Shown: positions 23,585 through 64,000 of the stretch, piece by piece
How positions within the stretch are numbered: the stretch's first letter is position 1
How the letters are laid out: each line of letters begins with the position of its first letter
DNA from: a virus
Lineage: Duplodnaviria; Caudoviricetes
Direction: 5' to 3' (one strand)
IMG/VR virus record: IMGVR_UViG_3300025913_000019
Length of the DNA: 64,000 nucleotides
The notes under the pieces: model-generated
Told to the model about the DNA's origin: nothing
The model's database searches: none
The model's input: the letters and a program-made list of their open reading frames with translations, nothing else
Made by a program: the position numbers and the translations under genes

Positions 23585-25210
23585 TCACGAGTCATCGCGG
23601 AGAAGCTTCTCCAGGAAGCTGGGTGGGCGGAAGCCCCAGCGGGCCCACAGCTCGGCTTGCAGGTCACCGTCGATGTAGGACAGCGCCGCAGTCGTGCCGG
23701 TCACGCTTTCCTTCTCGGTGCCGACGCCACGCTTGTGATTCAGCAGCTCGCCGACCTTGGCGGTCATGGCCTTGTACCGCTCGAGCGCTTCCTTCTCGTT
23801 CGAGGGCGGCCGACGCGTCTGCGCGTCCTTGTCGATCAGCTGCTTGAAGAGCGTGGTACCGCGACACGTGCGCAGCTTGTGGACCGTCACCGACTCGGGT
23901 GCGCCGAACGTGTGGAACGCCTTGTTGACATCGGCCGGGCTGACTCTGGCGATGCGGCCGTTGACGTTCACGGTGTAGAGCCACATCGACGGCTTCTTGT
24001 CGCCGATGAGTTCGAGCAGGCGCTTCACCAGCAGCGCGTGCTCCGGGCTGTCGGCCTTGCGGATGATGTGCTTCGTCGGGATCGAGTCCTTGCCGATGTA
24101 GGCGAGATTGACGCCGGCTTGCGTGATCGACGCGTTCTTGACCAGCAGCGTGCCGGCACCGCGGCCAGGGGCCGAACCGATGCGAGCAGCGTAGGTGTAG
24201 AGGATCTCGAGCACGACAGCGGAGACGCACAGCTTGTCAGCCGGGTTCCACTTCTTGATCTTGGCACGCCACGCGTTCTGGATCGAGCCGATGTTGCGCA
24301 TCAGGTCGGCCACGTGCTCGTACTTGGCGCTCGACTGCGAGCGACGGAAGTTGGCCGTGTAGCCGTAGGCGACTTCGCCGTCGACCTTGTAGGCCTTGAA
24401 GACCCAGTTGGCTTCCGGGTCCTTGCCGTCGTTCATCGCGACGTGGGTGTAGGTGTTGAGGTTCGGCACACCACCGATGAGCTCGCCGTCCTTCGTGTAC
24501 CAGTTGCCCTTGTCGTCGATCAGGCCGTCGAAGCCGGGCACCATCGAGTGGGTGAAGCCCATGCTCGTGATCTGCTTGTAGACCTTCTGATAGTCGGCCT
24601 TGTCCTCACCGCTCTTGCGGATCAGGTTCGACAGCGTGGCCTTGAACTCCGCGTTGTGGGCCTTGCGATGCTCGACGTACTGCGCGTATTGCTTCGGGTT
24701 CGTCTCCTTCAGCATCTCCGACTCTTGGCGAGTCAGGTGCGTGCCGTCGCGACCGACCAGCGACTTGACGACCTTGCGCAGCGCCTGGTTGTCGGCCTTC
24801 GGGATCGGCGGCGTGAAGATGGCGGCCATCTCCGGGGAGCCGAAGGTCGACGCGTTCTCACGAATAAACTTCAGCGCCGACACGGAGTCCGAGGTCAGGT
24901 AGGTGCGCAGCGCGTTCAGCATCCGCAGTTCCGGAGTCGTGTACGCGTTGTTGGCCTTGAACTCGGGGAACGCGGACTTGAGCTCGCGACCGAGTTCGAC
25001 CAGAGCCTCGATCTTGTTGGTGCCCGAGGTCGCAGCCTGGATGGCATCAGTCAGCCCCGGCAGCGTCTTCCACTTCGGAGCCGCCTTGACGTAGGGCTTG
25101 AGGTCGGCCTTCATCGCGGCCTTGGGGTTCGAGATGTAGTCCGCGACCAGCGCGCCAAGGATCTGGAGCAGCGAGGTCAGCTGACTGGCGGTGAGTTCGT
25201 AGACTTCCAC
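23585..25210 (-). CDS. type IB DNA topoisomerase (bacterial/poxvirus-like catalytic domain)
   Basis: Catalytic pentad in order: AARIG (R), YIGKD (K), HKLRT (R), LLNH (H), LSYID (Y); GTG start 25210 behind AGGA. Confidence 0.8.
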   Translation of the reverse strand: MEVYELTASQLTSLLQILGALVADYISNPKAAMKADLKPYVKAAPKWKTLPGLTDAIQAATSGTNKIEALVELGRELKSAFPEFKANNAYTTPELRMLNALRTYLTSDSVSALKFIRENASTFGSPEMAAIFTPPIPKADNQALRKVVKSLVGRDGTHLTRQESEMLKETNPKQYAQYVEHRKAHNAEFKATLSNLIRKSGEDKADYQKVYKQITSMGFTHSMVPGFDGLIDDKGNWYTKDGELIGGVPNLNTYTHVAMNDGKDPEANWVFKAYKVDGEVAYGYTANFRRSQSSAKYEHVADLMRNIGSIQNAWRAKIKKWNPADKLCVSAVVLEILYTYAARIGSAPGRGAGTLLVKNASITQAGVNLAYIGKDSIPTKHIIRKADSPEHALLVKRLLELIGDKKPSMWLYTVNVNGRIARVSPADVNKAFHTFGAPESVTVHKLRTCRGTTLFKQLIDKDAQTRRPPSNEKEALERYKAMTAKVGELLNHKRGVGTEKESVTGTTAALSYIDGDLQAELWARWGFRPPSFLEKLLRDDS

Positions 25211-25274
25211 GATGGGTCCTTTGTTTGATGCGTAGTGACAGCGTCGTATGCGCATAAAATTGGGACCCAGGAAT

Positions 25275-25310
25275 GCAAAAGGGCACACGGAGTTGCCACC
25301 GTGTGCCCTT
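25275..25310 (-). terminator. intrinsic terminator
   Basis: Perfect 12-bp stem AAGGGCACACGG/CCGTGTGCCCTT (25279-25310), followed by TT-GC on the minus strand, at the end of the thyA/folA run. Confidence 0.7.
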
Positions 25311-25547: not shown

Positions 25548-25861
25548 CAGTCGTCCTCGTCTTCGCCGTCGACGCGGTCGTGAACGTCGATCCAGTCCTG
25601 GTCGGTGTTGTCCCACACGACTTCGCCGAGACCGATGATGGCGTCACCCGTCAGCACATCGTCCAGCGGGTTGCCGTCGAACCGGTACATGCGACGCTTC
25701 TCGACTGCCATGAGACACGCGTCGAGCGGGACGCGAACCGTGACCTCGAGCATCGTGCCCGTCTTGGTGCCGACTGCACGACTGCGCAGCACCTCGGGCG
25801 TCAGGCTGTTCTTGACCAGCAGCGGCGTCTCGACTTTCTTCTTGCTTTCTTCGTTGGTCAT
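25547..25861 (-). CDS. hypothetical protein
   Basis: 104 aa; GGAGG RBS; ATGA overlap with folA. Confidence 0.65.
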   Translation of the reverse strand: MTNEESKKKVETPLLVKNSLTPEVLRSRAVGTKTGTMLEVTVRVPLDACLMAVEKRRMYRFDGNPLDDVLTGDAIIGLGEVVWDNTDQDWIDVHDRVDGEDEDD

Positions 25862-26409
25862 GCGTCCTCCCGATCGATTTGGTGAACCGGCCGCGCCAGA
25901 CCGTTGTGGCGCAACCAGCGGGTGACAGCGAACTTGCGACCGTCAGCAGCAGTACGTGAGTCGATGTCGTTCGCGTACCAATGCTCGCGATGCCAGAACG
26001 GGAACAGGACGTCACCGTCGATCCGTTCGTGCAGCGTCGTAAGCAGCAGCTCGTGAGCGTATGGCAGCGCCTGCTCGTACATCTGCGCGCCGCCAGCGAT
26101 GTAGATCGGCACGCCGGCATCGCACCGATCATCGAGGACACGAAGCGCGTTCATCAAGTCCGTGAAGACGTGAGCGCCCTTGGCCTCGTAGCCCGGCTGG
26201 CGACTGATGACGATGTTCTCACGGTACGGCAGCGGCCGGTACTTGGGCGGGATCGATTCCCAGGTTCGACGACCCATCACCACGTAGCGACCCGTGGTCG
26301 TGGCCTTGAAATGGGCCATGTCCTCGGGCAGATGCCACGGGATCGAATTCGAGTCCGAGCGGCCGATGACTCGGCCTTCCGCCATCGCGGCGATGAGTAC
26401 GATCTTCAT
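25858..26409 (-). CDS. folA: dihydrofolate reductase
   Basis: LIAAMAEGRVIG, IPWHLPEDMAHFK, VVMGRRTWESIP, PLPYRENIVISR, IAGGAQMY, GDVLFP. Confidence 0.96.
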   Translation of the reverse strand: MKIVLIAAMAEGRVIGRSDSNSIPWHLPEDMAHFKATTTGRYVVMGRRTWESIPPKYRPLPYRENIVISRQPGYEAKGAHVFTDLMNALRVLDDRCDAGVPIYIAGGAQMYEQALPYAHELLLTTLHERIDGDVLFPFWHREHWYANDIDSRTAADGRKFAVTRWLRHNGLARPVHQIDREDA

Positions 26410-26421
26410 GTCGAGCCCTGG

Positions 26422-27927
26422 TCAGACGGCCACCGGTGCCTTGATGGACGGATGGTGCCGGTAGTTCAGCACCTCGAAGTCCTCGGGCTCGTAGTCGAAG
26501 ATCGACTCGGGCTTGCGCTTGAGGCGGAGCGTGGGGAAGGGATACGCTTCACCCACGCGCGCGAGTTGCGTTTCCACCTGTTGGGTGTGCGACTTGTACA
26601 GGTGGACGTCGCCGCCGGTCCACACGAAGTCGCCGACGGCCATGCCGACCTGCTGCGCGATCATGTGCGTCAGCATCGCGTAGCTGGCGATGTTGAACGG
26701 CACGCCCAGGAACGTATCGCAGCTGCGCTGGTACAGCTGGCAGCTGAGGGCGCGACGCGGCACCTGCTGCTCGTCCAGGAACTTGTGCATGTGGGCTTCG
26801 ATCGCTGCCGCATCCTCGTCATGCAGCGACCAGGAGCCGACCAGGCCCGGGCCTTCGTACAGCTTCGCGCGCTCGTCCACCGTCAGCTCGTGCGAGTAGA
26901 ACTGGAACAGGCAGTGGCAGGGCATGAGCGCCATCTTCGAGAGCTCGGCCACGTTCCAGGCCGAGACGATGATGCGCCGGCAGTCCGGGTTCGTCTTCAG
27001 GCGGTTGATGACCCAGTCGATCTGGTCGATGGGTTTCTGGTACACAGTGGCGGGCGGGCGGCCCTTGCCGTCGATGTCCGTGCTGGCGATTTCGACCAGC
27101 GTGTTGCAGCCGGGAGGCACGGCGCCGCCGGGAGCCGTGACATCGACCTGGCCGGGCCACGCGCGCCACTGCGCACCGTAGACGGGACCGAGGTTGCCGT
27201 CCTTGTCGGCCCACTCGTCCCAAATCGTGCAGCCGCGTTCCTGCAGCCACTTGACGTTGGTGTCGCCGCGCAGGAACCACAACAGTTCGGTGATGACCGA
27301 CTTGAGGGCCACCTTCTTGGTCGTCACGAGCGGGAAGCCCTTGCTCAGGTCGTAGCGCAGCTGGTAGCCGAAGATCGAGGTGGTGCCGGTACCCGTGCGA
27401 TCACCCTTGTAGCGGCCGTTGTCACGGATGTGGCGCATCATCGTCTCGTACTGCACGTCCGGTGCAGCTTCCGGCGTCGTCGGCTCCGGGAAGAACGCTG
27501 CATCGTCGACGATGACCATGCTCGGGGTGACACCACGCTGCTTCGGCTCCGACTTCTCGGTCGCCTGGCTGAAGTCAGGATGCGCACGCGACCAGCCGGC
27601 CTTGTGACAGGCCGGGCACGCTTCCTTGGCCAGCGTGCAGTCGCCGCAGAGGCAGCCTTCGGGAGCACTGGCGTGCATGTAGTTCGTGTTCATCGTCTGT
27701 TCCTTGTCGTTGAGACTCATGGCATAGGCCAGGAGATCGTTGAGGTTGCCGGGGGTGATGTGGATCGTTCCCCTCGGCGACTCGGGGTTCTTCGTGCCGT
27801 CGCGGTAGTGGAAGTTCGCGACCAGCCCGACGACCTGCATCTTGCGCTCGGGCGACGACCTGATCCAGCAGCCCTTCATCTCCCGCTTGACGTTCAGTAC
27901 GAACGTGCTGTGATCGTCGGCCATCAT
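26422..27927 (-). CDS. thyA: thymidylate synthase ThyA with ~155-aa N-terminal extension
   Basis: [65 protein letters not shown]. Confidence 0.95.
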
Positions 27928-28505
27928 GCACGCTCCGCTTGTTGACGGAGTCGAGTATCGTCATCGACCGCACCCGTCGTCTTCGCCCCGCCGGTGTGGA
28001 CGTGTGCCTGCATACGTGTCTGCGACCAGCGCAGGCAGTCGCTCTGCGTCAGACACCGCATTGCCATGTTGGACTTGGTCTCGCGGACCTCGACCTTGGT
28101 GCAGACGACACGCGGCCAGTAGCCGTGGATCTTCAACCAGCCGTCTGGCCCGTTGAGGTAGTCGAAGATGAAGTCCGAGAGGCCTTCGCAGCCGGTGCGT
28201 TCGACCTCGACCACCTTGGCCAGACCATGAGCGCGAAGTGCGATCAGGGTATCGCGTTGCGGATCGTCCTGCGCCACCAGCAGCGTGTGGTCGAACCAGT
28301 CCTCGAAATCGTCCTTCAGCGGCTTGAGCGATCCGAAGTCGACCACCCAGTTGCGGGCGTCCAGGTCAGCGGCGCCGAACTCGAGATGGATCGACAGCGC
28401 GTAGCCGTGCACGACGTTGCAGTGGCTGTCGGCACGCCACTGGCGGTACGCGACCGGGAACGCCTCGCTGTACGTCTTGGTCGAGTAGAACGGGAACTCC
28501 ATCAT
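27924..28505 (-). CDS. queD: 6-carboxy-5,6,7,8-tetrahydropterin synthase (QueD/PTPS-like)
   Basis: [40 protein letters not shown]. Confidence 0.88.
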
Positions 28506-28515
28506 GGTCAGCCTC

Positions 28516-28959
28516 TCATCTCATCGTGTAGATGCGACGACCCGGAGTAGGCTCGTCGCACGTGTGACTCTTCTGCGGCTCAAGCCGCCTCTGTACTTCC
28601 TTGGGAAGGTCCTTGGCTTCAACAGGCTTCGGTTCCTTCTTCGCACTCTCTTTATAGTTCCGCCTCGGTGGCAACTCGGAACCAGGCAGAGCACGGAACT
28701 GCGTGGCCGTCAACCTGGTCTGGTGCACAGGAACGCCACAAGCGCCGCCAAGCTCAACACGCTTGCGGCGCTTTCGGATCTTGCGCACGTGTAGGTTCTG
28801 CGCGATCTGGTATGCCATGGGGTCCACGAACTGCTTGTCGACCGACCAATACTTGTGACCTTTCGGGCAATCGTGTGCTATGACCTGGCCCTTGCGACCT
28901 GCGTTGGCCATGACGGACCCGCAGTCGGGACAGCTCAGTCTGCGTGGTCCGCCACCCAT
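28516..28959 (-). CDS. basic zinc-ribbon protein
   Basis: CPDCG and CPKGH motifs; Lys/Arg-rich. Confidence 0.55.
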   Translation of the reverse strand: MGGGPRRLSCPDCGSVMANAGRKGQVIAHDCPKGHKYWSVDKQFVDPMAYQIAQNLHVRKIRKRRKRVELGGACGVPVHQTRLTATQFRALPGSELPPRRNYKESAKKEPKPVEAKDLPKEVQRRLEPQKSHTCDEPTPGRRIYTMR

Positions 28960-28961
28960 GG

Positions 28962-29186
28962 TCAGCCCTTCTTCAGGTACTCGGAGAGCGCCGGTTCCTC
29001 GTGGACCAGGAAGTCGCGGATGAACGAGGTGTTGGAGAGACCGACATAGCGCCAGCGCTCCTTCACCTCGTCACTGATCACGACCTGCTGGCCGTTGTTG
29101 AAGACCTGGAGCTGATCGAAGGGAACAGCGTCGAGGGTGCGAAGAGCCTCGACGTGCGCCATCACTTCCTCGACGTTGATCCTCAT
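28962..29186 (-). CDS. hypothetical protein
   Basis: 74 aa, tightly packed between neighbours. Confidence 0.6.
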   Translation of the reverse strand: MRINVEEVMAHVEALRTLDAVPFDQLQVFNNGQQVVISDEVKERWRYVGLSNTSFIRDFLVHEEPALSEYLKKG

Positions 29187-29189
29187 GGC

Positions 29190-30110
29190 TCAGACTCCTT
29201 CGTCTTCCGGCTCGTCGTCGACCGGCGCTTCGTCGGCCAGGTCACGCGCCACGTCCTGGTGCTCGGCGTCGGTCATGTTGGCGCCGAAGTCCGTCGTGGC
29301 CGTGCCGGCCGAGCCGCCCAGCAGGTTCGCGACGCTGTTCGGATGCGCGTCGGTGCCGCGGGCCGCGATCTCGGCAGCGGAACCACGGAGCATCACGCCC
29401 GACTCGGTGACACCGATCGTGGCTTGCGCAGCGCGCAGGCGATCGTTGGATTCCACCTGGTCGATGTAGGCCTTGGCCAGCGGCAGCGCGAGCTTGGACC
29501 AGCCTTCGAGGCGTTCCTGGACCTTCTCGAGTTCGGCGATCGTCAGCCATTCGCTGTTGTCGATCTGGCCGGCTTCGGGGTTGATCGCCGCCTTCTCGGC
29601 CGCGCTGACGTAGCGGATGGCGACGACGCCGCAGTGCACGCAGCCGACCTCGTTGGTGTCGGCCAGCAGGTGCGTGAAGCTCAGGGTCTGCTCGGGCAGG
29701 CCGGCTTCTTCCGCGAGTTCGCGGTTACCCTCGATGCTCAGCCAGGTCGCGAAGTTCGTGGCGGCGGGGATCGCTTCGTCCATGTGGCCGCCCAGGCCGA
29801 TGCTGAGGTTGCCGATGAGCCGGCCTTCGCCGCCGGCGCCGCCGCGGCTGTAGGTGAACACGCGGTAGTCGTCGTCGATGCAGAGGATGTAGGGGATGAT
29901 CTGGCGCAGGCTCGTGTCGGACTCGCAGTAGGCGCGGTCGACGAGGCGCAGCTGCGTGTTGTCCAGCGAGTAGAAGCTGGAGTCGATCGGCAGCGACATC
30001 GGGCGCGAACCCGAACTCGGCTTGCCGTCGGAGCCGTAGATGGCCTGGTAGCTGGGCTGGAGAGCGGACAGTGCGACGCACAGGGCGTACTTGATCTTCG
30101 GAGCGTTCAT
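29190..30110 (-). CDS. Nudix-family (MutT-like) predicted phosphoesterase
   Basis: RQIIPY..Y.R...E.RL....SIGLGGHMD..RELAEE..VG.VH.G..LEGWS pattern of a non-canonical Nudix clade. Confidence 0.75.
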   Translation of the reverse strand: MNAPKIKYALCVALSALQPSYQAIYGSDGKPSSGSRPMSLPIDSSFYSLDNTQLRLVDRAYCESDTSLRQIIPYILCIDDDYRVFTYSRGGAGGEGRLIGNLSIGLGGHMDEAIPAATNFATWLSIEGNRELAEEAGLPEQTLSFTHLLADTNEVGCVHCGVVAIRYVSAAEKAAINPEAGQIDNSEWLTIAELEKVQERLEGWSKLALPLAKAYIDQVESNDRLRAAQATIGVTESGVMLRGSAAEIAARGTDAHPNSVANLLGGSAGTATTDFGANMTDAEHQDVARDLADEAPVDDEPEDEGV

Positions 30111-30159
30111 GGGAACCTCAGTGTGGTGATGAGCTTGCGCTCGGATTAGAGCTCAGGGC

Positions 30160-30846
30160 TCACTTGTGGAACTTGTTGTCGGACATGGAGACGTTGATGT
30201 CGCTCATGTCGAAGAAGGGCTCGTCCGGCTTGCAGCCGAAGAGCGTGGTCTTGATCGCCGACGCGATGGAGAAGCCTTCCTGCTGTGCGCCGATGATGGC
30301 TTCGAGCACGTTCTCCATCGGCATGCCGAACTTCATGGCTTCGGACCGGCACGCGATCATGAGGGCACCGAGGCCGGAGGCGAACTCGACCATCACGTCC
30401 TTGCGGGCCGACTCGAGATCGTTGCTGCACAGGCGGTTGAACTCGAGCAGTCGCGCCCACGGTGCGTCGAACGAGTGCTCGCCGAACGTCTCCTTCATCG
30501 TCTGCTGCGCACGCGAGAGCATCTCGAAGAGCAGCTGCTCGAAGCCGCGGTAGCCGACGCCCAGCTTGACCTCGTCCGGCGTCTCGTAGTGGCCGATGAG
30601 ACGGACCTTCCAGTAGATCTCGTAGAGCGACTTCATGTGCTTGTCGAGTTCGTACCGGAAGTGGTACAGGCGCTGGTCGGCGGACTCCGGCACCTTGTTC
30701 TTGTCGAAGAGACCGTACAGGCTGGTCTCGGTCGAGACCGGGAGCTTGTTGCTCTCGTTGTAGCGCTCGATGTTGAACGCGAAGTTGTGCTCGCTGGTCC
30801 TGCTCAGGACCTGCTGCATCTGCGAAGCAGTCAGGTGTTGGTACAT
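30160..30846 (-). CDS. hypothetical helical protein, possibly a degenerate MazG/dUTPase-like fold
   Basis: 228 aa from MYQHL at 30846; helix spacing recalls MazG-like NTP pyrophosphohydrolases but the acidic metal ligands are not evident. Confidence 0.55.
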   Translation of the reverse strand: MYQHLTASQMQQVLSRTSEHNFAFNIERYNESNKLPVSTETSLYGLFDKNKVPESADQRLYHFRYELDKHMKSLYEIYWKVRLIGHYETPDEVKLGVGYRGFEQLLFEMLSRAQQTMKETFGEHSFDAPWARLLEFNRLCSNDLESARKDVMVEFASGLGALMIACRSEAMKFGMPMENVLEAIIGAQQEGFSIASAIKTTLFGCKPDEPFFDMSDINVSMSDNKFHK

Positions 30847-30848
30847 GG

Positions 30849-31568
30849 TCAGTCCTTGAAGGTGGGGATGAAGCGCATGAACTCGGCGCGGAGCTCCGGG
30901 GCTTCCATGAACTTGCCGCCGAGCTTCGATGTCACGGTCGAAGATCCCTCGTCGCGGACGCCGCGGCTCTTGACGCAGTAGTGCTCGGCTTCGATCACGA
31001 CGGCGACATCGTCGGTGCCGAGGACGAACTGCAGCGCATGGTAGATCTGCATCGTCAGCCGCTCCTGGATCTGCGGTCGCTTCGAGAAGAACTCGACGAT
31101 GCGGTTCAGCTTGGAGAGGCCGAGCACCTTGTCTTTCGCCAGGTAGGCGACGTGGCACTTGCCGGCGATGATGACGAAGTGATGCTCGCAGTTCGACTGC
31201 ACGCTGACGCTGCGTTCCAGCACCATCTCGTTGTAGCCGATCTTGTTCGAGACCACCGTCGCCTTCGGGAACTTCGCGTAGTCGAGGCCGTAGAAGATTT
31301 CGTCGACGTACATCTTGGCGACGCGCTCGGGCGTGTCGCACAGGCTGTCGTCGGTGAGATCGAGACCCAGCGTCTCCATGATGGCGTGGAAGTGGTACCG
31401 GATCTTGGCCTTGCGTTCAGCGTTGGTCATCGGCGTCGAGTCGCCATTGACGTCGATGATGCCGTTGCGGCCGACCTGCGGGCTCATCGGCGTCTCGACG
31501 CCTTGGGCCTTCAGGTGCTGGTGGACCTGGAAGCCCAGGCTGTAGTCGGTCTTGGTCATGTCGGTCAT
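30849..31568 (-). CDS. folE: GTP cyclohydrolase I
   Basis: DTPERVAKMY, SNCEHHF, LGLSKLNRIV, RPQIQERLT, AEHYCVKSRGV. Confidence 0.96.
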   Translation of the reverse strand: MTDMTKTDYSLGFQVHQHLKAQGVETPMSPQVGRNGIIDVNGDSTPMTNAERKAKIRYHFHAIMETLGLDLTDDSLCDTPERVAKMYVDEIFYGLDYAKFPKATVVSNKIGYNEMVLERSVSVQSNCEHHFVIIAGKCHVAYLAKDKVLGLSKLNRIVEFFSKRPQIQERLTMQIYHALQFVLGTDDVAVVIEAEHYCVKSRGVRDEGSSTVTSKLGGKFMEAPELRAEFMRFIPTFKD

Positions 31569-32428
31569 GCGATTGCGCAGAAGAGGTGTTGCTGGATCGA
31601 GAGCCGGAGGCCGTTCTCGATGGCGTACTGGGCGGCGTAGCCGTAGTTCCTGGCCGTCGCCACGGGGTCGATGAGGTCGTGATCCCAGGCCGAACTGATC
31701 TCGCCCTGGTACGGCTTCTTGTAGACGGCGATCGGGCTCACGTAGAGCGGGATGCGGTGCTCGCGTGCGAAGACCTGGGCCCACTGGGGCACCTTGTTGT
31801 ACAGCGGGTCATCGGCGCTGATGAGGAACTTGAGCGCCGTCGAGTCGAAGACGTTGCGGAGCACGGTCTCGCTTGTCGGCGTGTAGGTGCCGGTGAGCTC
31901 GGAGGCCTTCGGGCTCACGACGATGGTCGTCTTGTCCAGCATCTCGCGGAGACCGAAGGCCGTGTTCTCGGCCTGGCGGAAGAAGCGCGCCTGCGTGCCG
32001 TTGGTCTCGATCTGGATGCGGGAGAAGAACGGCGCCGCCACGTTCATGAAGCGCAGCAGCGTCTGGACTTGGAGCGTCGGCTCGCCACCCGTGATGACCA
32101 GGATCTGGCTGGCGTCGAAGCGCTCGTCCTCGATGATGGAGCGAAGCAGGAAGCTGGGATCGTACTCCGTGGCTTCGCTGAGCTTGAAGTTCGTGTCGCA
32201 GAAGGCGCACATGCCGGGGCTCTTCTCAGCCGTGGTCTTGTCGCCGAAGTTGCAGCCCGCGAGGCGAACGAACCACGCGGGCTTGCCTGCTTCCGGCCCC
32301 TCGCCTTGGATGGTGAGGAATGGCGCGCCGGTGACGTAGAGCAGAGGCGAGTTGTCGAGCTCGGACGGCTTGACGATGCGATCGACGTTCTGGATCACAC
32401 GCTGGATGGGGATGACTGTCTGTTTCAC
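31565..32428 (-). CDS. queE: 7-carboxy-7-deazaguanine synthase (radical SAM)
   Basis: FLTIQGEG..AG.PAWFVRLAGCN, CX14CX2C cluster motif, VITGGEPTLQ, IETNGT, VSPK; GTGA-overlap start. Confidence 0.92.
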   Translation of the reverse strand: MKQTVIPIQRVIQNVDRIVKPSELDNSPLLYVTGAPFLTIQGEGPEAGKPAWFVRLAGCNFGDKTTAEKSPGMCAFCDTNFKLSEATEYDPSFLLRSIIEDERFDASQILVITGGEPTLQVQTLLRFMNVAAPFFSRIQIETNGTQARFFRQAENTAFGLREMLDKTTIVVSPKASELTGTYTPTSETVLRNVFDSTALKFLISADDPLYNKVPQWAQVFAREHRIPLYVSPIAVYKKPYQGEISSAWDHDLIDPVATARNYGYAAQYAIENGLRLSIQQHLFCAIA

Positions 32429-32940
32429 GAGAGGCCCTCGGTCGAGAAGACGTGTTGGCTGTAGGCGGGGAACACTCGCTTGCACGCCTTGATGATCTGG
32501 CGCTTGAGCACGAGCGTTGCGGGGGTCGGGACTTCGATGCCCAGTTCCAGGCCTTGACGCTTGGCCCACATACGGTTCGAGTCGCCGTACTTGTCGAAGA
32601 GCGGGATCAGGTTGCGAGACCCGAAGTAGACGCGCTGGTAGCCGATGGCGGCCGCGGCTTCGAGGAACCGGCCGTTGCGGTTGTCGAAGATGCCGGGCTT
32701 CCCGTCCTGCGTCGGGATCGGCGGGTACTTGATGTACTTGAGGCGCTTCAGGCCTTCCTTCTCCATCGATTGCACCGCGATCATCTCGCGCTCCAGGTAC
32801 GACTGGCCGTAGTCGAAGAACAGCAGGTCGGGCTGCTCGATGCGACGCTCGGCTTCGATCAGACAGTACAGGCTGTCCCAGCCACCCGAGAAGAGGATGG
32901 CGGTGCGGCTCGACTGCCGGATGCGCCAGAGGTCAGTCAC
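32425..32940 (-). CDS. QueC-like PP-loop ATPase lacking the C-terminal zinc domain
   Basis: ILFSGGWDS PP-loop, FFDYGQ..RE, NRNGRFL, YGDS; ends where the T-SC-Y/CxxC zinc region of QueC would begin. Confidence 0.75.
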   Translation of the reverse strand: MTDLWRIRQSSRTAILFSGGWDSLYCLIEAERRIEQPDLLFFDYGQSYLEREMIAVQSMEKEGLKRLKYIKYPPIPTQDGKPGIFDNRNGRFLEAAAAIGYQRVYFGSRNLIPLFDKYGDSNRMWAKRQGLELGIEVPTPATLVLKRQIIKACKRVFPAYSQHVFSTEGLS

Positions 32941-33352
32941 GACGGGTTCGGTCTTGTCCTGCACGACGCAGGACGTATGGAAGGACGAGGGCATGGGGCC
33001 ATTTCCAGTTGAAGGGGAAGAGAGGGCGCGGCTGCATGACGCCAGCGTGGCTGGGGATGTCGAGGCAGACGTGAACGAGCCAGCCGAGGCACCACCAGGC
33101 GGTGCCGAATGCGCAGTAGCTGAATGCGGCCACGAAGGCGATGACCAGCAGCGAGTGGACGAGTCGGTACGGGATCAACTCGTTCTCGGTCAGGGTCCAG
33201 GACCAGACGTACCAGTCGTGGAAGCCCGACTTGCGGAACTTGCGCTCGACCGGCAGCCACACGAGGTCAGGTGCGACACACATGGCGGCGGCACCGTAGT
33301 GGCCGGTGAGCAGGAACGGGATGGCCGAGGCCGCGTGGACAAGTACGTGCAT
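32933..33352 (-). CDS. YdjM-like membrane-bound metal-dependent hydrolase candidate
   Basis: VH..., APDL, VHSLL, GWLVHVCLD, PLFPF with hydrophobic segments. Confidence 0.55.
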   Translation of the reverse strand: MHVLVHAASAIPFLLTGHYGAAAMCVAPDLVWLPVERKFRKSGFHDWYVWSWTLTENELIPYRLVHSLLVIAFVAAFSYCAFGTAWWCLGWLVHVCLDIPSHAGVMQPRPLFPFNWKWPHALVLPYVLRRAGQDRTRRD

Positions 33353-33364
33353 AGGAACTCCTAT

Positions 33365-34702
33365 TTACGGTTTGAGCCCTGCAAAGAAGTCCGTCTTGTG
33401 GTACTTCCCATAGCGCTTGATGATCCAGTACTGTCGGCTCAGGTCTTCCTTCGGAACCGTCTTCACGGTGTCGAAGAGCGTGCCCATCGCTGTCTTCTTC
33501 ACCGAGTAGTCGATGGCACAGGCCTGCTCGTACTTCTTAGTCTGGAGGATCAGATCGAAGGCGCGACCCATGGCCGGCAGCACGCGCTTGTCGAAACCGA
33601 CGCCTGCCTTGTAGAAGAAGCGCGCGATCTCCGTGCCCTTCAGCTTCTTGGCGATGGCGATCGAAGCCAGGCCATTCAAGGTCTCGCAGCCCTTGTTGAT
33701 CTGCTCCGCGTTGTGCAGCAGCATCAGCGTCGGGAAGCCATCCATCCAGTACTCGTACTCGATGAAGTTGCAGATGGGGCAGCTGCACTTGATGCGGCCG
33801 TAGTTCCCTTCGCGCGGCGGGATCGTCCCGTTGATGAAGTTCTTGAACTGCTGGCCGTTCAGATACGTCGTCGAGTCCGAGGTCACGACCTTCTGGTGCA
33901 GGTTCGCGATCACGGCCGCGAGGCTCATGCCGATGACAGAGCTCAGACCCAGCAAGTGGTAGTGCTTGTAGTCGGCCGGATGGAGCATGCCCACCAGCAT
34001 GTGGGCCGCGATCGCCATCGGGTTCGCGCCCACCGCGGTGTCGAGGATCGAGCCGCGCAGGCCTGCGATGCACAGGCTGTCCATCGGCTCGGCGAGCGCG
34101 ATCTTCTGCCATTTGGCGCGGAGCTGCGGTGTCAGGCCGTGGCTCACGTTCATCAGCGCCCACTTGGCCTTGCGCGCCTTGACCATGACCTTGGAATTCG
34201 CGGCCAGCATCCGGGCGCCGGCTTGCACCAGGATCGGATCGTCGACGAGCGAGAGCGGGAGGTCGAGACCGACGCCCGAGTCGGCGAACGTGTCGTGCAG
34301 CGCTGTCAGCTCGATAGGATCGATGAAGTCCTTCAGGCCGGTGAAGAGCTGGAAGCCGCCCGAGTCCTGGATGCGGTAGCACAGCTTGCCGAGCTCACGT
34401 GCTTGATGAAGGTGCGACTCCTTCATCACCTTGTCCTGCGCGTTGTAGAGGCCGAAGTGCGTGCGCTGCAGCAGCTCGCGACCCGGATGCCAGGCGTCCT
34501 TGAGTTTGATGCGCGCGCTGTGAGCGATGCGCTGACCCATGCCCTCCATGATGCGGACGCCGGCAGCCTTGCCCTCGATCTCCTTGCGGTACATGTGCGG
34601 CTCATACGAGCCGTGGAACGGCTTCTTGATGAGAGACTGGTTGTAGAGCTGCTCCATGGCAGCAGGCGCCCAATAGTATCCGGGCTTCGGAAGCTGTCGC
34701 AT
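33365..34702 (-). CDS. tRNA-guanine-transglycosylase-fold protein (DpdA-like base-exchange enzyme)
   Basis: QDSGGFQ, GLDLP, NVSHG, IAGL, YHLLG, TSDSTTY, zinc site CSCPIC...LLHN; heads the que/fol operon. Confidence 0.85.
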   Translation of the reverse strand: MRQLPKPGYYWAPAAMEQLYNQSLIKKPFHGSYEPHMYRKEIEGKAAGVRIMEGMGQRIAHSARIKLKDAWHPGRELLQRTHFGLYNAQDKVMKESHLHQARELGKLCYRIQDSGGFQLFTGLKDFIDPIELTALHDTFADSGVGLDLPLSLVDDPILVQAGARMLAANSKVMVKARKAKWALMNVSHGLTPQLRAKWQKIALAEPMDSLCIAGLRGSILDTAVGANPMAIAAHMLVGMLHPADYKHYHLLGLSSVIGMSLAAVIANLHQKVVTSDSTTYLNGQQFKNFINGTIPPREGNYGRIKCSCPICNFIEYEYWMDGFPTLMLLHNAEQINKGCETLNGLASIAIAKKLKGTEIARFFYKAGVGFDKRVLPAMGRAFDLILQTKKYEQACAIDYSVKKTAMGTLFDTVKTVPKEDLSRQYWIIKRYGKYHKTDFFAGLKP

Positions 34703-34712
34703 CGTCTTCTTT

Positions 34713-35072
34713 CTATTTCGAGAGCAAGAGCTTGCGGCCTCGATCGAGGAACTCGCGCATCATCTTGGCTTGTTTGGCTTCGAGGTTGAAGTTGGCGCTC
34801 AGAACTGTCGCATCAGCGTTCAGCTGCAGGAGGTACTTGTGCTCCGGCTTGAGGACGTGCTTGATGGCCGCAACGGAAACCTCGGCATCGAACTTGACCA
34901 GGGTCCACGTAGGCGTCACTTCGGCGTCGATAAAACTGTTGATCGACTCCTTGATCTTGAGCAGCTCCTGCTCGGTCAGCACCGCATTGATCCACAGCAG
35001 GAAGATGCGGGTCGGCGGCGCTCGGAGCTCTCGTCTCTCATCGACGTAGGTACGTGGTACCAGATCGTTCAT
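34713..35072 (-). CDS. hypothetical protein
   Basis: 119 aa; GAGG RBS. Confidence 0.6.
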   Translation of the reverse strand: MNDLVPRTYVDERRELRAPPTRIFLLWINAVLTEQELLKIKESINSFIDAEVTPTWTLVKFDAEVSVAAIKHVLKPEHKYLLQLNADATVLSANFNLEAKQAKMMREFLDRGRKLLLSK

Positions 35073-35073
35073 G

Positions 35074-35448
35074 TCACCACCTCATTCGGTAGACGCGTCC
35101 ACCGTATTCGTTGGTGGACACGAAGTGTCCGGTCTTGATGTACTGTCGAGGTCCGGAGCTCGTGTCCTCGGGTTCGGACTCCGGTTCAGGCTCCGGCCTC
35201 GGAGGCGGCTCCGGCGGATCACCCGGTTCGAGGAATCGCACGTCAGCATCCGTAGGGCTGGGCCGCTTATGCTGCCGTGCCACATCGAACTTGTTGTACG
35301 ACGGACGGTCGATGAAGCGCAGGCCAAGCGTGAAATGGACATGACCCTCGTCACACCGACGCTTGCGAGCCTCGAAGCGGGTCTCTTTCGTCTTCAGGGG
35401 CAGACCGCAGTCAGGACAGTCTTGTCTCAGGATCGGCTTCAGATACAT
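35074..35448 (-). CDS. zinc-ribbon protein with Pro/Glu linker
   Basis: CPDCG...RRCDEGH; start trimmed to ATG 35448 overlapping the primase stop. Confidence 0.55.
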   Translation of the reverse strand: MYLKPILRQDCPDCGLPLKTKETRFEARKRRCDEGHVHFTLGLRFIDRPSYNKFDVARQHKRPSPTDADVRFLEPGDPPEPPPRPEPEPESEPEDTSSGPRQYIKTGHFVSTNEYGGRVYRMRW

Positions 35449-36422
35449 AGCGCTCTCAGCTGCTTCACTTTCTTCATGGGCATGTTGCCCGGGTCCCACA
35501 GGTCGACGCCCGCGGCCTTTGCTGCCTTGGTAGGCTCTTCCTCGTCACGGTACGGCCAGTACGGGCTGTCCTTGCCACAGAGATCGAAGACCACGACCTT
35601 CACCATCGTCTCGAGCGTCGGCTGTGCCAGCTCCGTTGCCTTGATGCCCGCGTCATCTCCGTCAAATGCTAGGACGATGCGTTCAGCGCCGGTCATCTCG
35701 ATCAGTTGGCTCTTGCGTGTCGACCACGACTGCGTGCCCAGGATCGAGATGGCTGGGATGCCCAGCGTCTGCAAGCGCAGAGCATCGCGCGGGCCTTCGC
35801 ACAGCACGATGGTCTTGAGGCCGAGCTTATTCATCAATGCTACGGCCTGGTCGTAGAGGAATAGCCCGTAGTCATGCGACCAGCCACCACGCGAGTTCAG
35901 ATAGCTGGGCTTCCCGTTCTTGTCCTTGCGTGTCCGTGCACGGATGTAGCCCCTGAGCTCACCCTTGACCATGACCGGGAAGTAGAGCATCTTGGCGCTC
36001 CTGATCCCGTCGTCGTAGATCGCACGGCACATGCGTGCCTTCACAACTTCGAGCAGGAAGTCGGTCTTGATCTCTCGCCAGACCTTGCCTGCGGGCAGCG
36101 GATAGAAGACGAGCTTGACCTCGCCGGGGTCCTGCCTGCGTTCGCGCAGGGTGTGGGCATACTGCTCGCTGGGCGGTGCCCACTTGTAGGCCTTGAGGCC
36201 GAGCATCGGCGCTACTTCATCCCAAGGCGCAGTCTTGCCACAGCCATAGCACTTGAAGAAGCCGGGACTCTTGGTCGACTGCGAGTGGAAGATGCGTCCA
36301 CTCGGTGTGTTCTCGGAGTGGAACGGACACGAGACGAACGTGGTGTCACCAGACCCACGCTTCTTCGGACCAGAGTAGTGGCCGAGCTCTCGGATCACGT
36401 GCTCCAGTTTACGACTGTCCAT
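35439..36422 (-). CDS. DnaG-type primase (CHC2 zinc finger plus TOPRIM)
   Basis: CPFHSENTPS...FFKCYGCG, VLCEGPRDAL, LAFDGDDAG. Confidence 0.88.
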   Translation of the reverse strand: MDSRKLEHVIRELGHYSGPKKRGSGDTTFVSCPFHSENTPSGRIFHSQSTKSPGFFKCYGCGKTAPWDEVAPMLGLKAYKWAPPSEQYAHTLRERRQDPGEVKLVFYPLPAGKVWREIKTDFLLEVVKARMCRAIYDDGIRSAKMLYFPVMVKGELRGYIRARTRKDKNGKPSYLNSRGGWSHDYGLFLYDQAVALMNKLGLKTIVLCEGPRDALRLQTLGIPAISILGTQSWSTRKSQLIEMTGAERIVLAFDGDDAGIKATELAQPTLETMVKVVVFDLCGKDSPYWPYRDEEEPTKAAKAAGVDLWDPGNMPMKKVKQLRALCI

Positions 36423-37081: not shown

Positions 37082-37599
37082 GTCTTGCGCGCGCCAACGA
37101 GGGCGCGTCCTTTCTCTGTGAGTGCGAAGTCACCGCGGCAGTTGCAGGCACAGCCATCAATGAGACCGCGGGCAATGAGCGACCTCATCTTTGCGAGCAC
37201 GAGCTTGGGTGGCGTCTTGTCCCCTTGAGGAAAGGCTGGCGTCACCGAGTTCTCGAAGCCCGGCCACGGACAGCCTTGGCGTTGGACATGGAACAGACCG
37301 GCGACCTTCCAGTTGGGGAGATCGCGCAGGAGTTCGAGGATCGGCAGGTCGGGGATGTCCTTGCACTGCAAGCGCTTGGGGATCGACGATGCCTCACGGA
37401 CAACGATACCCTGGGCCTCACAACCTGGAGGCAGCTTCGTCGCTCCGTAGAGAGCACCCAGCTCGCTCGTCATCATGAGCGCGTGCTTGGAGACGGGGTC
37501 GGCGATGGGGACGACGGGCTGCGGCTTGAGAGGCCAGCGGATCGTCCACATGCCGTAGTAGTGCTTGTCGGTCCGACGCTTGATGGCTCGGAGCTTCAT
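37078..37599 (-). CDS. conserved phage hypothetical protein
   Basis: QCKDIPD..IL..KL.LAKMR.LI.RGLIDGCAC.CRGDF pattern; ATGA overlap with polymerase stop. Confidence 0.65.
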   Translation of the reverse strand: MKLRAIKRRTDKHYYGMWTIRWPLKPQPVVPIADPVSKHALMMTSELGALYGATKLPPGCEAQGIVVREASSIPKRLQCKDIPDLPILELLRDLPNWKVAGLFHVQRQGCPWPGFENSVTPAFPQGDKTPPKLVLAKMRSLIARGLIDGCACNCRGDFALTEKGRALVGARKT

Positions 37600-40500
37600 G
37601 CTGCTTCCTTCTCTTTCGGTTTGGCCTTCGCGCGCTTGCGGTAGTCCTTGTCGAAGACGGCCAGCGCTTCCTTGATCTCGGCTTCGAGGTCGACGCCCAG
37701 GTACGGGAAGCGCTTGTTCAAGAACGCGAGGCACTCGTCGCTCCGGTATGGCTGGAGGATCTGCTTCATGATCTCGTCCTTCGACTCGGTCAGGTAGCCA
37801 GCCTTCACGCCATCGTCGACCGCGGCCTCGATGTGGGCGAAGAGCTCAGGCAGAGCCCAGCCCCACTTACGGCTCTTCGTGTCCTGGACGCCGATTTCCA
37901 TTTCGATCTCGGGCTCGACCGTGAACTCGAGATCGAACTCGTCCTTGTAGGCCTTGGTCACGCCGTAGGTCGCATCGTACTGGAGGATGTGCATGAACGG
38001 CAGCACCATCGAGTACGGCACCGTGAAGTACGATGCGTCGTGGACGATGCGGTTGAACCTGACCGGGAACTTCGCCTTGGCGTCGAGACCGATCATGGCC
38101 TTGAGCTTCGGCTGCAACCGGTAGTAGTTCATCATGACCAGACGACTGCCCTTGACCGCGACCTCGGATGCGAAGCCTTGAATCGGCGCGTTCATACCAC
38201 GACGCACCTGGCGGCTCACGATCTGGCGATCCTTGGTGAGGGAGGCCCACAGGTGACGGATGCGATAGATCGGGCTGTAGACGTGCTGCTCGTTCTCCGC
38301 CTTGTCACTCATGCGCTGCAGCCACTTGTGACCCATCTTGAACGCCGAGAACATCTTGTCGATGATGTTCTGCGCGTAGTCCTCGCGGTCGTCCTCCATG
38401 AGCGCGCGGTACTGCTCTTCGAGATCAGCCAGCTCCTTCTTGTTGCCGGCCTTGTAGGCGACGCCCATCTTCTCCTTCAGCGCATCGAACTCGGCCTTCT
38501 TCGTGTCGTGCCCGAGGGTCGATGCCGACTTGCCGTAGATGGTACCGAAGACGACGGCCTTGATGGCGTCGCGCAGTGGGTCCGACTTCTCGACCCACTT
38601 GTTGAAGAACCGGTAGACGTTCTGGATGTGGACGTCGCCTTCCTTCTTCAAGCGCGTGGCGATGTCGTCGGTCTCGATCACGCGCTTCAGCAACGTGATG
38701 CGAGCCTTGTCCTTGCACTTCTTGAGCTCGGCCTCGTAGGTCTCGCGGATCTCCTTCGCCATCGGCAGCTTGATGGGCTCGCCCTTCGAGTTGACGAGGA
38801 TCATCGGCGGATGCTTCTTGATCCAGGCTTGGCGCAGACCCTGGCCGACCTTGAACGTCGCCGCCAGGATCTTGTCGAGCGCAACGATAGACCAGCCACG
38901 TACCTCGTGCGCCGAGTAGTCGAACCGGATCTGGAGATGACCATCGGCAGTGATGAACATTTCCTTGATGATCTTCGACAGCTTGCCGCGAGTCGGGATG
39001 TTCTGGAGATTGGGATTTCGGCTTGCGAGTCGACCCGTGTCGACATCGAAGAACACGATGTCGGAGCGGAGGTGATCGTCGAACAGGCCGTCGATCGCCT
39101 TCAGCAGCTTGAGCCATCCCTTGACGTTGGTGCCCAGCATCTTCGACGCCGCGGTGTACTCGCCGAACTTGGCAACCAGGAAGTTCCGATCCTTGTAGGT
39201 CTCGATGAACTCCTTGTCGACCGAGGGCTCCCCCTTCTCGGTCTTGTTGATGGCCTCCATGCCCATGACATCGAAGAACAGCTTGGCCTTGTGCTTCGGC
39301 TTCGTGAACGAGAATGTCCAGGCAGCGTTGCCGGAACCGAACAGGCCGCCGGTCTTGAAGCCGGCCTCGGCCAGCAGTTGCTTGTTCGCTTCCTTGACTT
39401 CGGGGAAGGTCTTGAACTCGTCGCCCAGTTCTGCGATGGCCTTGACCAGCACCGAGTCGGGATGCAGGAGCGAGCGCAGGTACTTGCGGTTGACGAGCGA
39501 GCCAGCTTCCTTCAGGTGGGACAGCTGGTGGATCGTGTCGCTCATCTGACACAGCATGTGGCGGATGAAGAGCGGCCGATAGTTCTTGCCGTCGACGGTC
39601 TGGAAGCCCGCGCGCTCGATCTGCGAACGCTTGATGCCGAGCATCGAGACCGTGTCCATTGCGGCGTACCGCAGGAAGTCCTTGTCCTTCGGACTCACGT
39701 TCGCGACCGTGGCTCGATCTTCCTTCGTGAACCCGGACTCGAGCAGATAGAAGTCGTTGCCGTAGGAGGCGAAGACACCGGCCAGGCCGTTGGCGCTCAT
39801 GCGCTTCTTGCCCACGCCGTCGCCGTAGACGCCCACGTACTTGAGACTCGAGCAGTTCTCGTCGAGGTTGTGCTCGCCTGCCATGCACTCCCAAATGGGC
39901 ATGCCGATGATGTCGAGGTGCAGCGCCTTGCGAATGACGCGCAGGTCGAAGGCACCGTTGAAGCAGATCATGAGGCACTTGCGCTTCATGTCGCCGAACC
40001 TGTGCTTGAGCTCGCGCTTGATGTACTTCCGTTCGTCGATCGAGAACGGGTTGTCCGCGTGCGGGTGGTCGATGGGCAGGACGTAACCCTTATTGGGGCT
40101 GTGGTCGAACGTCATCTGCATCGTGAAGATGCGGTTCTTGTTCACCGTCAGGTTCTTGGTCTCGGTGTCGAGCCCGAACTCGCCGCCACGATCAGCCACC
40201 GCATCCCACTCGACCATCATCTGGTCGAACTTCTTGATCGTGTCGACCAGGACCGGCTTGACTTCGAGGCCCGCCAGGCTATGCGGCAACGTGCCGACGA
40301 GCAGGTTGGCGAGGTGCTGGCACCAGAAGCCCAGCAGGTTGGCGTAGAGCCCGACCTTCTCCAGCAGCCGGCTGAAGTCGACGGTCGACACGACCTTGCG
40401 TCCGTCGATCTCGTGCACCCAGCCGTTCTTCAGCTGAGCATGCTTGATGCTCGGGTACAGCTTCTGCACGTCCCCGCTGAAGAGGATGTGCGTCGGGTTG

Positions 40501-63840: not shown

Positions 63841-63850
63841 GGCCGTAGAC

Positions 63851-63882
63851 AAGGGGTCGATCTCAACCGGGGTCGACCCCTT
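63851..63882 (+). terminator. hairpin (terminator or RNA-processing stem)
   Basis: AAGGGGTCGA/TCGACCCCTT perfect 10-bp stem. Confidence 0.6.
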
Positions 63883-63933
63883 CTCCATTTCTGTGTCCCC
63901 AACTGTTCCATCCGACCTAGAAAGGTTACCGCA

Positions 63934-64000
63934 ATGAACCGCTACATCAAGTACGTCACGAGCCTCGGCTTCTCAGGTGTCACCGAAGCCGCGCAGAAGA
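63934..64000 (+). CDS. hypothetical protein, 5' fragment
   Basis: CTAGAAAGG RBS, MNRYIKYVTSLG..., open to the window end. Confidence 0.6.
   Translation, partial: MNRYIKYVTSLGFSGVTEAAQK

Follow-up and report, generated by a model that had tools for sequence, protein, structure and literature searches.

A putative Motura-type 7-deazaguanine DNA-modification operon with a variant QueC step in an uncultured jumbo phage from rhizosphere soil

7-Deazaguanine modifications of DNA are a major anti-restriction strategy of phages, and eight derivatives are known. We analysed a predicted operon of this kind in a 64,000-nucleotide stretch of viral DNA (the window) from IMG/VR entry IMGVR_UViG_3300025913_000019. 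The closest described systems are the phage pathways to dPreQ0 and dADG (PMC6884629, PMC10516641); that of phiST, whose DNA has been found experimentally to be 7-deazaguanine-modified, as dDG (Cui 2023, PMC10516641); phage CP220 with its divergent QueC*; Cap9 of type IV phage-defence signalling systems based on cyclic oligonucleotides (CBASS); and phage Motura, where Iyer et al. (2021, PMC7824862) have already interpreted a homologous system as deazaguanine modification of DNA. Judged from its genes, the locus in the window would be a genuine Motura-type 7-deazaguanine DNA-modification operon in which the QueC step takes a new form. We give a probability of roughly 0.6 to the reading that this co-transcribed module makes a 7-substituted 7-deazaguanine from GTP and swaps it into phage DNA as a protection against restriction. 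The window belongs to a 139,364-bp IMG/VR virus record with a CheckV completeness of ~59 %, and it is this record that was searched wherever the record is mentioned below. Related loci and contigs, and members of the mini-QueC family, carry L or P labels (L001 is ACP17, L002 is IMGVR_UViG_3300003322_000327, L012 is CP220 and L019 is BCSR5).

Layout of the module and the route to CDG

The window has a G+C content of 62 % and carries minus-strand genes from ~44.5 kb down to 0.3 kb. All genes of the operon lie on this strand and are transcribed from 34702 to 27924. The order begins with DNA polymerase A, two unknown open reading frames (ORFs), a primase, a zinc-ribbon ORF, p119, an enzyme with the tRNA-guanine transglycosylase (TGT) fold, a YdjM-like protein and mini-QueC, and continues through QueE, FolE, a helical protein, a Nudix-like protein, s74, s147, QueD, ThyA and dihydrofolate reductase (DHFR). 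The genes of the module are given below with their lengths in amino acids (aa) and the evidence used.

33365-34702, minus strand: large DpdA-like transglycosylase (TGT superfamily), 445 aa; family profile, AlphaFold2 (AF2) model and Foldseek
32933-33352, minus strand: YdjM-like small membrane metal-hydrolase-like protein, 139 aa; ESM Atlas and sub-threshold Pfam match
32425-32994, minus strand: mini-QueC, QueC-family PP-loop ATPase, 189 aa; partial Pfam match, profile against PDB and Foldseek
31565-32428, minus strand: QueE, radical-SAM CDG synthase, 287 aa; phrog_2076 and TIGR04508
30849-31568, minus strand: FolE, GTP cyclohydrolase I, 239 aa; PF01227 and phrog_2197
30160-30846, minus strand: conserved helical protein, 228 aa; homologs in related loci
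29190-30110, minus strand: Nudix-like protein of TM1382 type, 306 aa; phrog_8902 and PDB 3e57
28962-29186, minus strand: s74, 74 aa; codon bias
28516-28959, minus strand: s147, small zinc-ribbon ORF, 147 aa; motifs common to paralogs
27924-28505, minus strand: QueD, CPH4 synthase, 193 aa; PF01242 and phrog_2389

Four-nucleotide overlaps connect mini-QueC with QueE (the GTG start of QueE overlapping the mini-QueC stop as GTGA), QueE with FolE (ATGA) and QueD with ThyA (ATGA). The YdjM-like gene overlaps mini-QueC by 62 nt, and the remaining intergenic gaps measure 2-12 nt, with one exception of 49 nt. No terminator-like sites were found on the minus strand between 25000 and 37800. Codon bias is phage-typical, with G+C at third codon positions (GC3) of 0.82-0.93 across the operon genes, the exception being s147 at 0.69. 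The module is probably co-transcribed. The original prediction, made from the letters alone, had listed these genes as co-oriented and mostly overlap-coupled, and ORFs, codon bias and family matches confirmed each in its place. It had drawn the block from 27924 to 34702 with the folate/thymidylate genes included; this extent holds for the 7-deazaguanine genes, whereas thyA-folA lies just outside it at 25858-27927.

In the proposed pathway, which for these steps follows from strong family assignments, FolE would convert GTP to dihydroneopterin triphosphate (H2NTP), QueD would form 6-carboxytetrahydropterin (CPH4) and QueE would yield 7-carboxy-7-deazaguanine (CDG). FolE matched PF01227 (2.7e-60) and phrog_2197 (3e-71) and is 59 % identical to the FolE of ACP17. 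QueE matched phrog_2076 (8e-29) and, under the equivalog cut-off, TIGR04508 (queE_Cx14CxxC, 3e-19), and displays the corresponding Cx14CxxC radical-SAM motif. QueD, which carries a C-terminal extension, matched PF01242 (PTPS; 1e-14, 55 bits against a cut-off of 22.4) and phrog_2389 (2e-37) and is 61 % identical to its ACP17 counterpart. In its motif CNVVHGY, a CxxxHGY form replaces CxxxHGH with the catalytic Cys kept, a variant common to phiST, Motura, ACP17, L013 and L014. The idea that this motif signals altered chemistry was rejected, as the QueD proteins of phiST, Motura and ACP17 share it, and identity of QueD with DpdL was ruled out by the absence of the LxxxHRHxF motif. On sequence grounds we regard all three enzymes as ordinary and the predicted route to CDG as complete, and a whole phage-encoded CDG pathway fits bulk modification of DNA.

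DpdL itself was not found by tblastn of the record with ACP17 and phiST queries, and its LxxxHRHxF motif is likewise absent there. Beside QueE in ACP17, a 127-aa 'hypothetical protein' (gp125, L001:5824-6207) bears the DpdL signature (PHRHLF); the phiST counterpart of DpdL is CGPG_00067. The absence of QueF and GATase genes noted earlier for the window extends to the record, in which QueF (PF14489), a second QueC (PF06508), PF01702, GATase_7 and a second PTPS domain were all sought and not found.

The transglycosylase family and its settings

The component expected to act on DNA is the 445-aa DpdA-like protein, which would use Asp113, Asp147, His188, the nucleophile Asp276 and a CxCxxC...H site to insert the base by base exchange. 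Pfam, PHROG and NCBIfam gave no match for it, and PF01702 gave none at E 0.1 for the protein or at E 1 in the whole record. An exhaustive HMMER search recovered 244 cluster representatives of its family at 50 % identity, 118 of them below 1e-10. In a 40-member alignment D113-S-G-G-F-Q118, D147, H188-G, H249xLG and D276-S277 are invariant, as is the zinc site C306xC308xxC311...H330; an H-G pair stands where tRNA TGTs have Gln-Gly. The DSGGFQ motif, the second Asp and the nucleophile Asp align with the motifs of arcTGT and QTRT1, and the family profile matched arcTGT 1iq8 at E 1.5e-11. The AF2 model has a mean predicted local distance difference test (pLDDT) of 91, and its top 50 Foldseek matches in PDB were all TGT, QTRT1 or arcTGT (probability 1.0, template modelling (TM) score 0.5-0.6). 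The protein certainly belongs to the TGT superfamily. The family as a whole is large, escapes the Pfam TGT model and sits beside differing tailoring genes; surveys that rely on Pfam therefore undercount such systems.

Within the superfamily its affinities are with Motura. Alignment by hhalign to the Motura 'tRNA guanine transglycosylase' was full length (E 7e-55), whilst that to the DpdA2-like ACP17 gp123 covered the core only (probability 97 %, E 5e-11) and the DpdA1-like protein of L005 reached 88 %; phiST DpdA3 gave 3 % by hhalign and E 7e-5 by Foldseek. Among BFVD models its only cluster partners are BCSR5 and Motura-type proteins (TM 0.72-0.77), and it lies far from nt-1 DpdA2, phiST DpdA3 and actinophage DpdA1. 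Here, as in six or more related contigs, the gene adjoins mini-QueC, QueE, FolE and QueD, and by this context the enzyme appears to be DpdA-like; by sequence and structure it is of the Motura/BCSR5 type. The ACP17 protein gp123 (424 aa) is itself a DpdA2-like transglycosylase related to proteins of nt-1 and VH7D and lacks CxCxxC. Neither DpdA3, gp66 nor MazG of phiST was found in the record by tblastn.

A transglycosylase of this kind could instead act on tRNA, boosting or altering queuosine or archaeosine-type modification in the host. The exact DSGGFQ and intact zinc site are as in tRNA TGTs, the best profile match is an archaeal tRNA-guanine transglycosylase, and boosting has been raised for phages with preQ0 genes that lack DpdA (Hutinet 2019, PMC6884629). 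We consider such a target quite improbable, because the enzyme has no PUA or other tRNA-binding C-terminal domain, its family is phage-specific in every context seen, its gene sits in a DNA replication module, and a TGT-family DpdA is present in every phage in which 7-deazaguanine DNA has been measured. The earlier claim of a 7-deazaguanine-type genome modification is well supported by gene content, with a predicted full CDG route, a QueC-family protein and a TGT retaining all catalytic residues, and is backed further by the replication and nucleotide-metabolism setting and by the retention of the module in at least six related phage contigs.

Mapping the neighbours of the enzyme in related loci revealed a recurrent arrangement and several departures from it. 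The order DNA polymerase, primase, DpdA-like, YdjM-like, mini-QueC, QueE, FolE, helical protein, QueD and ThyA/ThyX recurs in L003/L004, L013, L014, L017, L018 and the P0003 contig. The DpdA of L002 is 82 % identical to that of the window and its pocket segment CIAGLRGSILDTAVGANP, predicted to receive the 7-substituent, is identical. At the place of the YdjM-like/mini-QueC pair (L002:11358-12964) that locus combines a canonical 221-aa QueC with a 314-aa protein whose resemblance to class-V PLP aminotransferases is weak (PhnW/AepZ, E 6e-10). The apparent module swap may give another product. In BCSR5 (MW460245, L019:3227-10997) the large DpdA-like family profile matched at E 2e-117 and QueE and FolE are present, with no QueC of any kind found in the locus; the BCSR5 deazaguanine may be glycosylated or otherwise tailored. 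Between QueE and FolE that phage also carries an Acb2/Tad1-hairpin gene (anti-CBASS/Thoeris sponge-like).

Mini-QueC, its YdjM-like partner and the end base

The step after CDG is less certain. Mini-QueC occupies the QueC slot, where it would adenylate the CDG carboxylate and, using ammonia, form the amide 7-amido-7-deazaguanine (ADG), with further conversion to the nitrile preQ0 possible. The YdjM-like membrane metal-hydrolase-like protein would act jointly with it. As end base, ADG or preQ0 is the most probable.

Pfam QueC matches mini-QueC over residues 33-80 only. In a search of PDB the family profile found Cap9 first (9nto_B, 1e-9) and QueC 3bl5 next to it (5e-9), and the AF2 model (pLDDT 85, residues 1-20 disordered) had QueC 3bl5/2pg3 and Cap9 9nto as its top Foldseek matches (TM 0.60-0.68; 0.65-0.68 for Cap9). 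A word-based search gave 19 relatives, and ~17 of 159-248 aa (33-73 % identity) were aligned. The PP-loop S36-G-G-W-D-S41 is invariant or nearly so among these, and SGGxDS, YGQxY..E, RN, GxRN, FDKYxDSN and P(x)5K show the same degree of conservation across the alignment. The motifs of mini-QueC itself, namely Y62xQ64xY66...E70, DNR106N107, Y136-G-D138-S139 and P158(x)5K164, are Cap9-type variants of YxQxHxxE, VPxRN and YPDC plus Lys, the published signature (PMC13329287); spacings match those of Cap9, Ser standing for Cys and Trp for Phe. Also kept are the essential E. coli QueC residues Y35, R99 and Y131 and an aromatic residue at the Y189 position (PMC13329287). Eleven homologs keep the C-terminal end, ...HVFSTEGLS, and the stop codon coincides with the start of QueE; the truncation is therefore native. 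A CxCxxC tail persists in a second subgroup (P0014-16 and P0018). The family is less rare than the 19 relatives first suggested, since ESM Atlas has several viral clusters of short QueC-family proteins.

One Cys-bearing member is informative about function. In L005 it is the only QueC of a cluster comprising QueD, QueE, FolE, mini-QueC, DpdA (phrog_887) and ParB, and the family can therefore fill the QueC role. This cluster and the canonical-QueC locus of L002 favour the view that mini-QueC performs QueC's job here, as far as gene content can tell. Probing the record by tblastn with AsnB and QueC of Motura, with QueC and the aminotransferase-like protein of L002, and with QueC* of CP220 found only the cluster itself. 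Identity of mini-QueC with CP220 QueC* was rejected, as the latter is full length with a zinc motif.

The YdjM-like protein is the constant companion of this enzyme. Pfam YdjM (PF04307) scored 15 bits against a cut-off of 29 and Zn_dep_PLPC was also sub-threshold, whilst ESM Atlas placed the protein with YdjM clusters (score 0.90, 190 shared features, structure TM 0.70). Its putative metal ligands H6, D29, E36, H66, D98 and H102 are conserved in eight YdjM-like homologs. Such an ORF lies directly upstream of mini-QueC in 10 of 11 contexts, nine by homology (the window, L003/L004, the P0003 contig, L013, L014, L017 as an uncalled ORF, L018 and L015) and one by size and position, the 121-aa ORF of the P0016 contig. 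L015 and P0016 have Cys-bearing mini-QueC proteins, as does L005, the only context without the partner. That the YdjM-like protein supplies the lost metal site of mini-QueC in trans is weakened by its presence before Cys-bearing forms (L015 and, with a presumed partner, P0016). The literature gave no paper linking YdjM with QueC or deazaguanine.

The YdjM-like gene is always in the +1 frame relative to mini-QueC, with an overlap of 8-62 nt, and P0017 is a natural fusion of the two whose N-terminal domain is 35 % identical with the His, Asp and Glu positions kept. The fusion and the constant offset prompted the idea of a programmed +1 frameshift. This was rejected, as the overlap varies across that range, GC3 phase changes to the mini-QueC frame exactly at ATG 32994, and the tail of the YdjM-like protein is conserved at the protein level; separate, coupled genes suffice.

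A number of observations count against the preferred reading of the module. The C(x)8CxxCxxC zinc ribbon present in all characterised QueC, QueC* and Cap9 proteins is absent from mini-QueC, with no Cys cluster following downstream, and QueC equivalog cut-offs were failed (NF008317, 23.6 against 378 bits; TIGR00364, 20.4 against 150.3). Alteration of the canonical signature is predicted to abolish preQ0 synthesis (Libby et al. 2026, PMC13329287). The known pathway has no place for a constant YdjM-like partner. Nothing here sets DNA apart from tRNA or protein as the target, measured modification is absent for every member of the large TGT family, and as the record is ~59 % complete the absence of genes from it is no proof. 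The tailoring genes beside the TGT family also vary, being AsnB-like in Motura and aminotransferase-like in L002, and the BCSR5 locus has GT1 glycosyltransferase, PIG-L deacetylase-like and PAPS-reductase-like PP-loop genes upstream. With such differing genes around one TGT family, the end products of the clade are probably diverse.

Loss of the zinc ribbon and failure of the cut-offs would equally suit a mini-QueC that is nonfunctional as QueC, with the TGT-fold enzyme inserting CDG to give dCDG, as in STSV-2, or a precursor that is modified afterwards on the DNA. Viral dCDG and insertion of CDG by a DpdA2 in delta-queC have been described (Cui et al. 2023, PMC10516641), and BCSR5 combines the same TGT family with QueE and FolE in a locus lacking QueC. 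This account is improbable, as mini-QueC lies beside QueE and is clearly under purifying selection, with PP-loop and substrate motifs invariant in the ~17 homologs.

The similarity to Cap9 bears on the nature of the product. Cap9 and QatC ligate CDG to the amine of glycine (PMC13329287), and a Cap9/QatC-like mini-QueC could by this precedent couple CDG through its carboxylate to some amine in place of ammonia, such as an amino acid or a polyamine, or the YdjM-like protein could process an intermediate, giving an undescribed N-substituted 7-amido-7-deazaguanine or related base. Cap9 is the best PDB match of the family profile, mini-QueC has the Cap9-variant spacings of YxQ(x)5E, YxD(C/S)xxx-aromatic and P(x)5K (PMC13329287), an active site that has lost its zinc-ribbon lid could be more open, the YdjM-like partner is an obligatory one that in P0017 is fused, and tailoring modules vary around the same TGT family. 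We nevertheless hold this outcome to be doubtful: the TGT pocket is identical to that of L002 with its canonical QueC, a Cys-bearing family member is the sole QueC of a plain DpdA1-type cluster in L005, the cluster has no candidate amine-supplying enzyme, and Cap9 keeps its zinc site, so that the likeness may reflect shared minimal size only. The original prediction had taken the atypical components as pointing to a non-standard end product. Several of these prove ordinary for phages (the HGY form of QueD, the Motura/BCSR5 TGT and the retained QueC core), and the claim is weakened further by L005 and by the shared L002 pocket; the obligatory partner together with the native loss of the zinc ribbon keeps such a product within the range of outcomes.

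A related and similarly tentative proposal is that the YdjM-like protein and zinc-less mini-QueC form a two-component, sometimes fused, QueC replacement making a base undescribed in DNA, such as an N-substituted 7-amido-7-deazaguanine from amide ligation of Cap9 type, which the large Motura-type DpdA-like enzyme would then insert. If true, this would constitute a new biosynthetic branch, possibly leading to a ninth natural deazaguanine DNA base. Whatever the product, a minimal QueC natively devoid of the zinc ribbon, and almost always YdjM-coupled, would perform or alter the QueC step.

Resemblance to Cap9, and the pairing of QueC-like with TGT-like proteins as in type IV CBASS, could also suggest a phage Cap9/Cap10 that places CDG on a protein N-terminus, for example in regulation or counter-defence, and s147 begins with MGGGP. 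A stoichiometric protein tag needs no phage FolE-QueD-QueE pathway, however, and the TGT family is also found with canonical QueC. No conserved CD-NTase or partner with a Gly-rich N-terminus accompanies the genes (CD-NTase families had no match among the operon neighbours scanned). As a target s147 is unsupported, since a Gly (GGG) start is missing in its paralogs and related clusters do not carry the gene. Protein deazaguanylation is accordingly very remote, and DNA modification with ADG or preQ0 is the reading we retain.

Neighbouring genes, source and known systems

The genes flanking the module, and the first small ORF upstream of it, are as follows.

37596-40859, minus strand: DNA polymerase A; codon bias and ORF list
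35439-36422, minus strand: primase; codon bias and ORF list
35074-35499, minus strand: zinc-ribbon ORF; paralog of s147
34713-35072, minus strand: p119, conserved, 119 aa; no Pfam match
26422-27927, minus strand: ThyA, 501 aa; PF00303
25858-26409, minus strand: DHFR, 183 aa; PF00186

Directly upstream of the DpdA-like gene, p119 has same-position counterparts in L002 (56 % identical) and L003 (28 %) and may belong to the module. The helical ORF, first taken as an unexplained extra, is indeed present but is no mere addition, as homologs lie directly after FolE in L002, L003, L013 and L014. Pfam, PHROG and NCBIfam gave no match for it. The L002 homolog alone matches phrog_671 (nucleotide pyrophosphohydrolase, 2e-11), and ESM Atlas points weakly to PRA-PH/MazG (0.78-0.80). 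Comparison with phiST MazG by hhalign gave nothing, the profile found only designed helical repeats in PDB, which are spurious, and the short homologs lack the acidic pair (ExxE...ExxD motif). The protein is possibly a degenerate MazG/PRA-PH-type all-alpha NTP pyrophosphohydrolase domain. The Nudix-like protein scored 17.7 bits for Pfam NUDIX against a cut-off of 21.1 and matched phrog_8902 (9e-26) and PDB 3e57 (TM1382, 2e-11). Its RELAEEAGL fits REUxEExGU, whilst the full box Gx5Ex7REUxEExGU is unmatched; a homolog lies between QueD and ThyA in L003. The helical and Nudix-like genes are conserved accessories whose products probably act on nucleotide pools.

Two small ORFs separate these from QueD. 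Strong codon bias marks s74 (GC3 0.85), for which Pfam and PHROG gave no family match and related loci no homolog. The zinc ribbon CPDCG...C.KGH and C-terminal GxRxYxMR of s147 are shared with window 35074-35499 and L002:9250-9588. This small family (CPxCG...C.xGH, C-terminal GxRxYxMR(W)) thus occurs twice in the window, with an unusually low GC3 of 0.65-0.69. The next genes, ThyA and DHFR, are an adjoining nucleotide-metabolism block outside the deazaguanine chemistry, although the folate and preQ0 pathways have FolE in common. ThyA matched PF00303 over residues 159-501 (2.7e-113) with the PCH motif present; its Cys-rich N-terminal extension of ~158 aa corresponds to a separate 99-aa ORF in L002, and the window therefore has either a gene fusion or a missed internal start. 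DHFR matched PF00186 at 2e-45. Upstream of QueD in L003, a DUF7487 gene on the opposite strand (L003:10470-11519) is bordered by a repeated 25-aa piece of the QueD N-terminus (76 % identical), which suggests an inserted mobile, homing-type element.

The DNA polymerase shares 41-46 % identity with its counterparts in the jumbo phages BCSR5, phiRSL1, BcepSaruman/Sauron and Motura. All Logan contigs with this DNA came from rhizosphere or soil metagenomes, and none of those listed derived from RNA. The source is an uncultured phiRSL1/BCSR5/Motura-like jumbo phage of rhizosphere soil. A topoisomerase IB at 23585-25288 (PF01028, 6e-16), with a long unassigned N-terminal half, is of a type that characterises the Motura/phiRSL1 subgroup of jumbo phages (Iyer et al. 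2021, PMC7824862). The window's final 851 bases (63150-64000) are absent from the 139-kb record that holds the remainder, and the window therefore comes from a longer version of the contig. A 212-kb contig carries an identical copy of one window protein.

Set against the described systems, the locus shares with the phage dPreQ0/dADG pathways the FolE-QueD-QueE set, a QueC-family protein and a TGT-superfamily enzyme in a replication region. It differs from them in a 445-aa transglycosylase that PF01702 misses and that is set apart in structure from the tested representatives of DpdA1, DpdA2 and DpdA3, in its zinc-less 189-aa mini-QueC with a YdjM-like partner, and in being known from genes alone. 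With the phiST dDG system (FolE-QueD-QueE-DpdL-DpdA3-MazG; PMC10516641) it has in common the CxxxHGY QueD, the lack of a canonical QueC and possibly a gene of all-alpha NTP-pyrophosphohydrolase type next to FolE, whereas its record lacks DpdL, its TGT is distant from DpdA3 and its helical protein has no detectable similarity to MazG. CP220 QueC*, the proposed ADG synthase (Cui 2023, PMC10516641), is likewise a divergent phage QueC-family enzyme, but at ~218 aa (L012:1501-2160) it has the SCY...CxxCxxC zinc motif SCYKGGNKPCNVCPTC and VPFRN and FPDC motifs, matches the mini-QueC profile weakly and at its N-terminus (E 1.5e-5), and has no YdjM-like partner. Cap9 (Wassarman 2025, Libby 2026) resembles mini-QueC in size and in its YxQ(x)5E, RN, YxD(C/S)xxx-aromatic and P(x)5K motifs; it keeps a CE(x)6CxxCxxCxD zinc motif, lies adjacent to a CD-NTase and modifies a protein N-terminus, whereas mini-QueC is without the zinc motif and has CDG-pathway genes, and no CD-NTase, among its scanned neighbours. 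The nearest relatives are Motura, with a canonical 200-aa QueC and AsnB-like amidotransferase in place of the YdjM-like/mini-QueC pair, and BCSR5, which lacks both the pair and any QueC in its locus and has tailoring genes. What unites both with the window is the large TGT family (BFVD TM 0.74-0.76), the polymerase lineage and the proximity of QueE, FolE and QueD, to which Motura adds ThyA.

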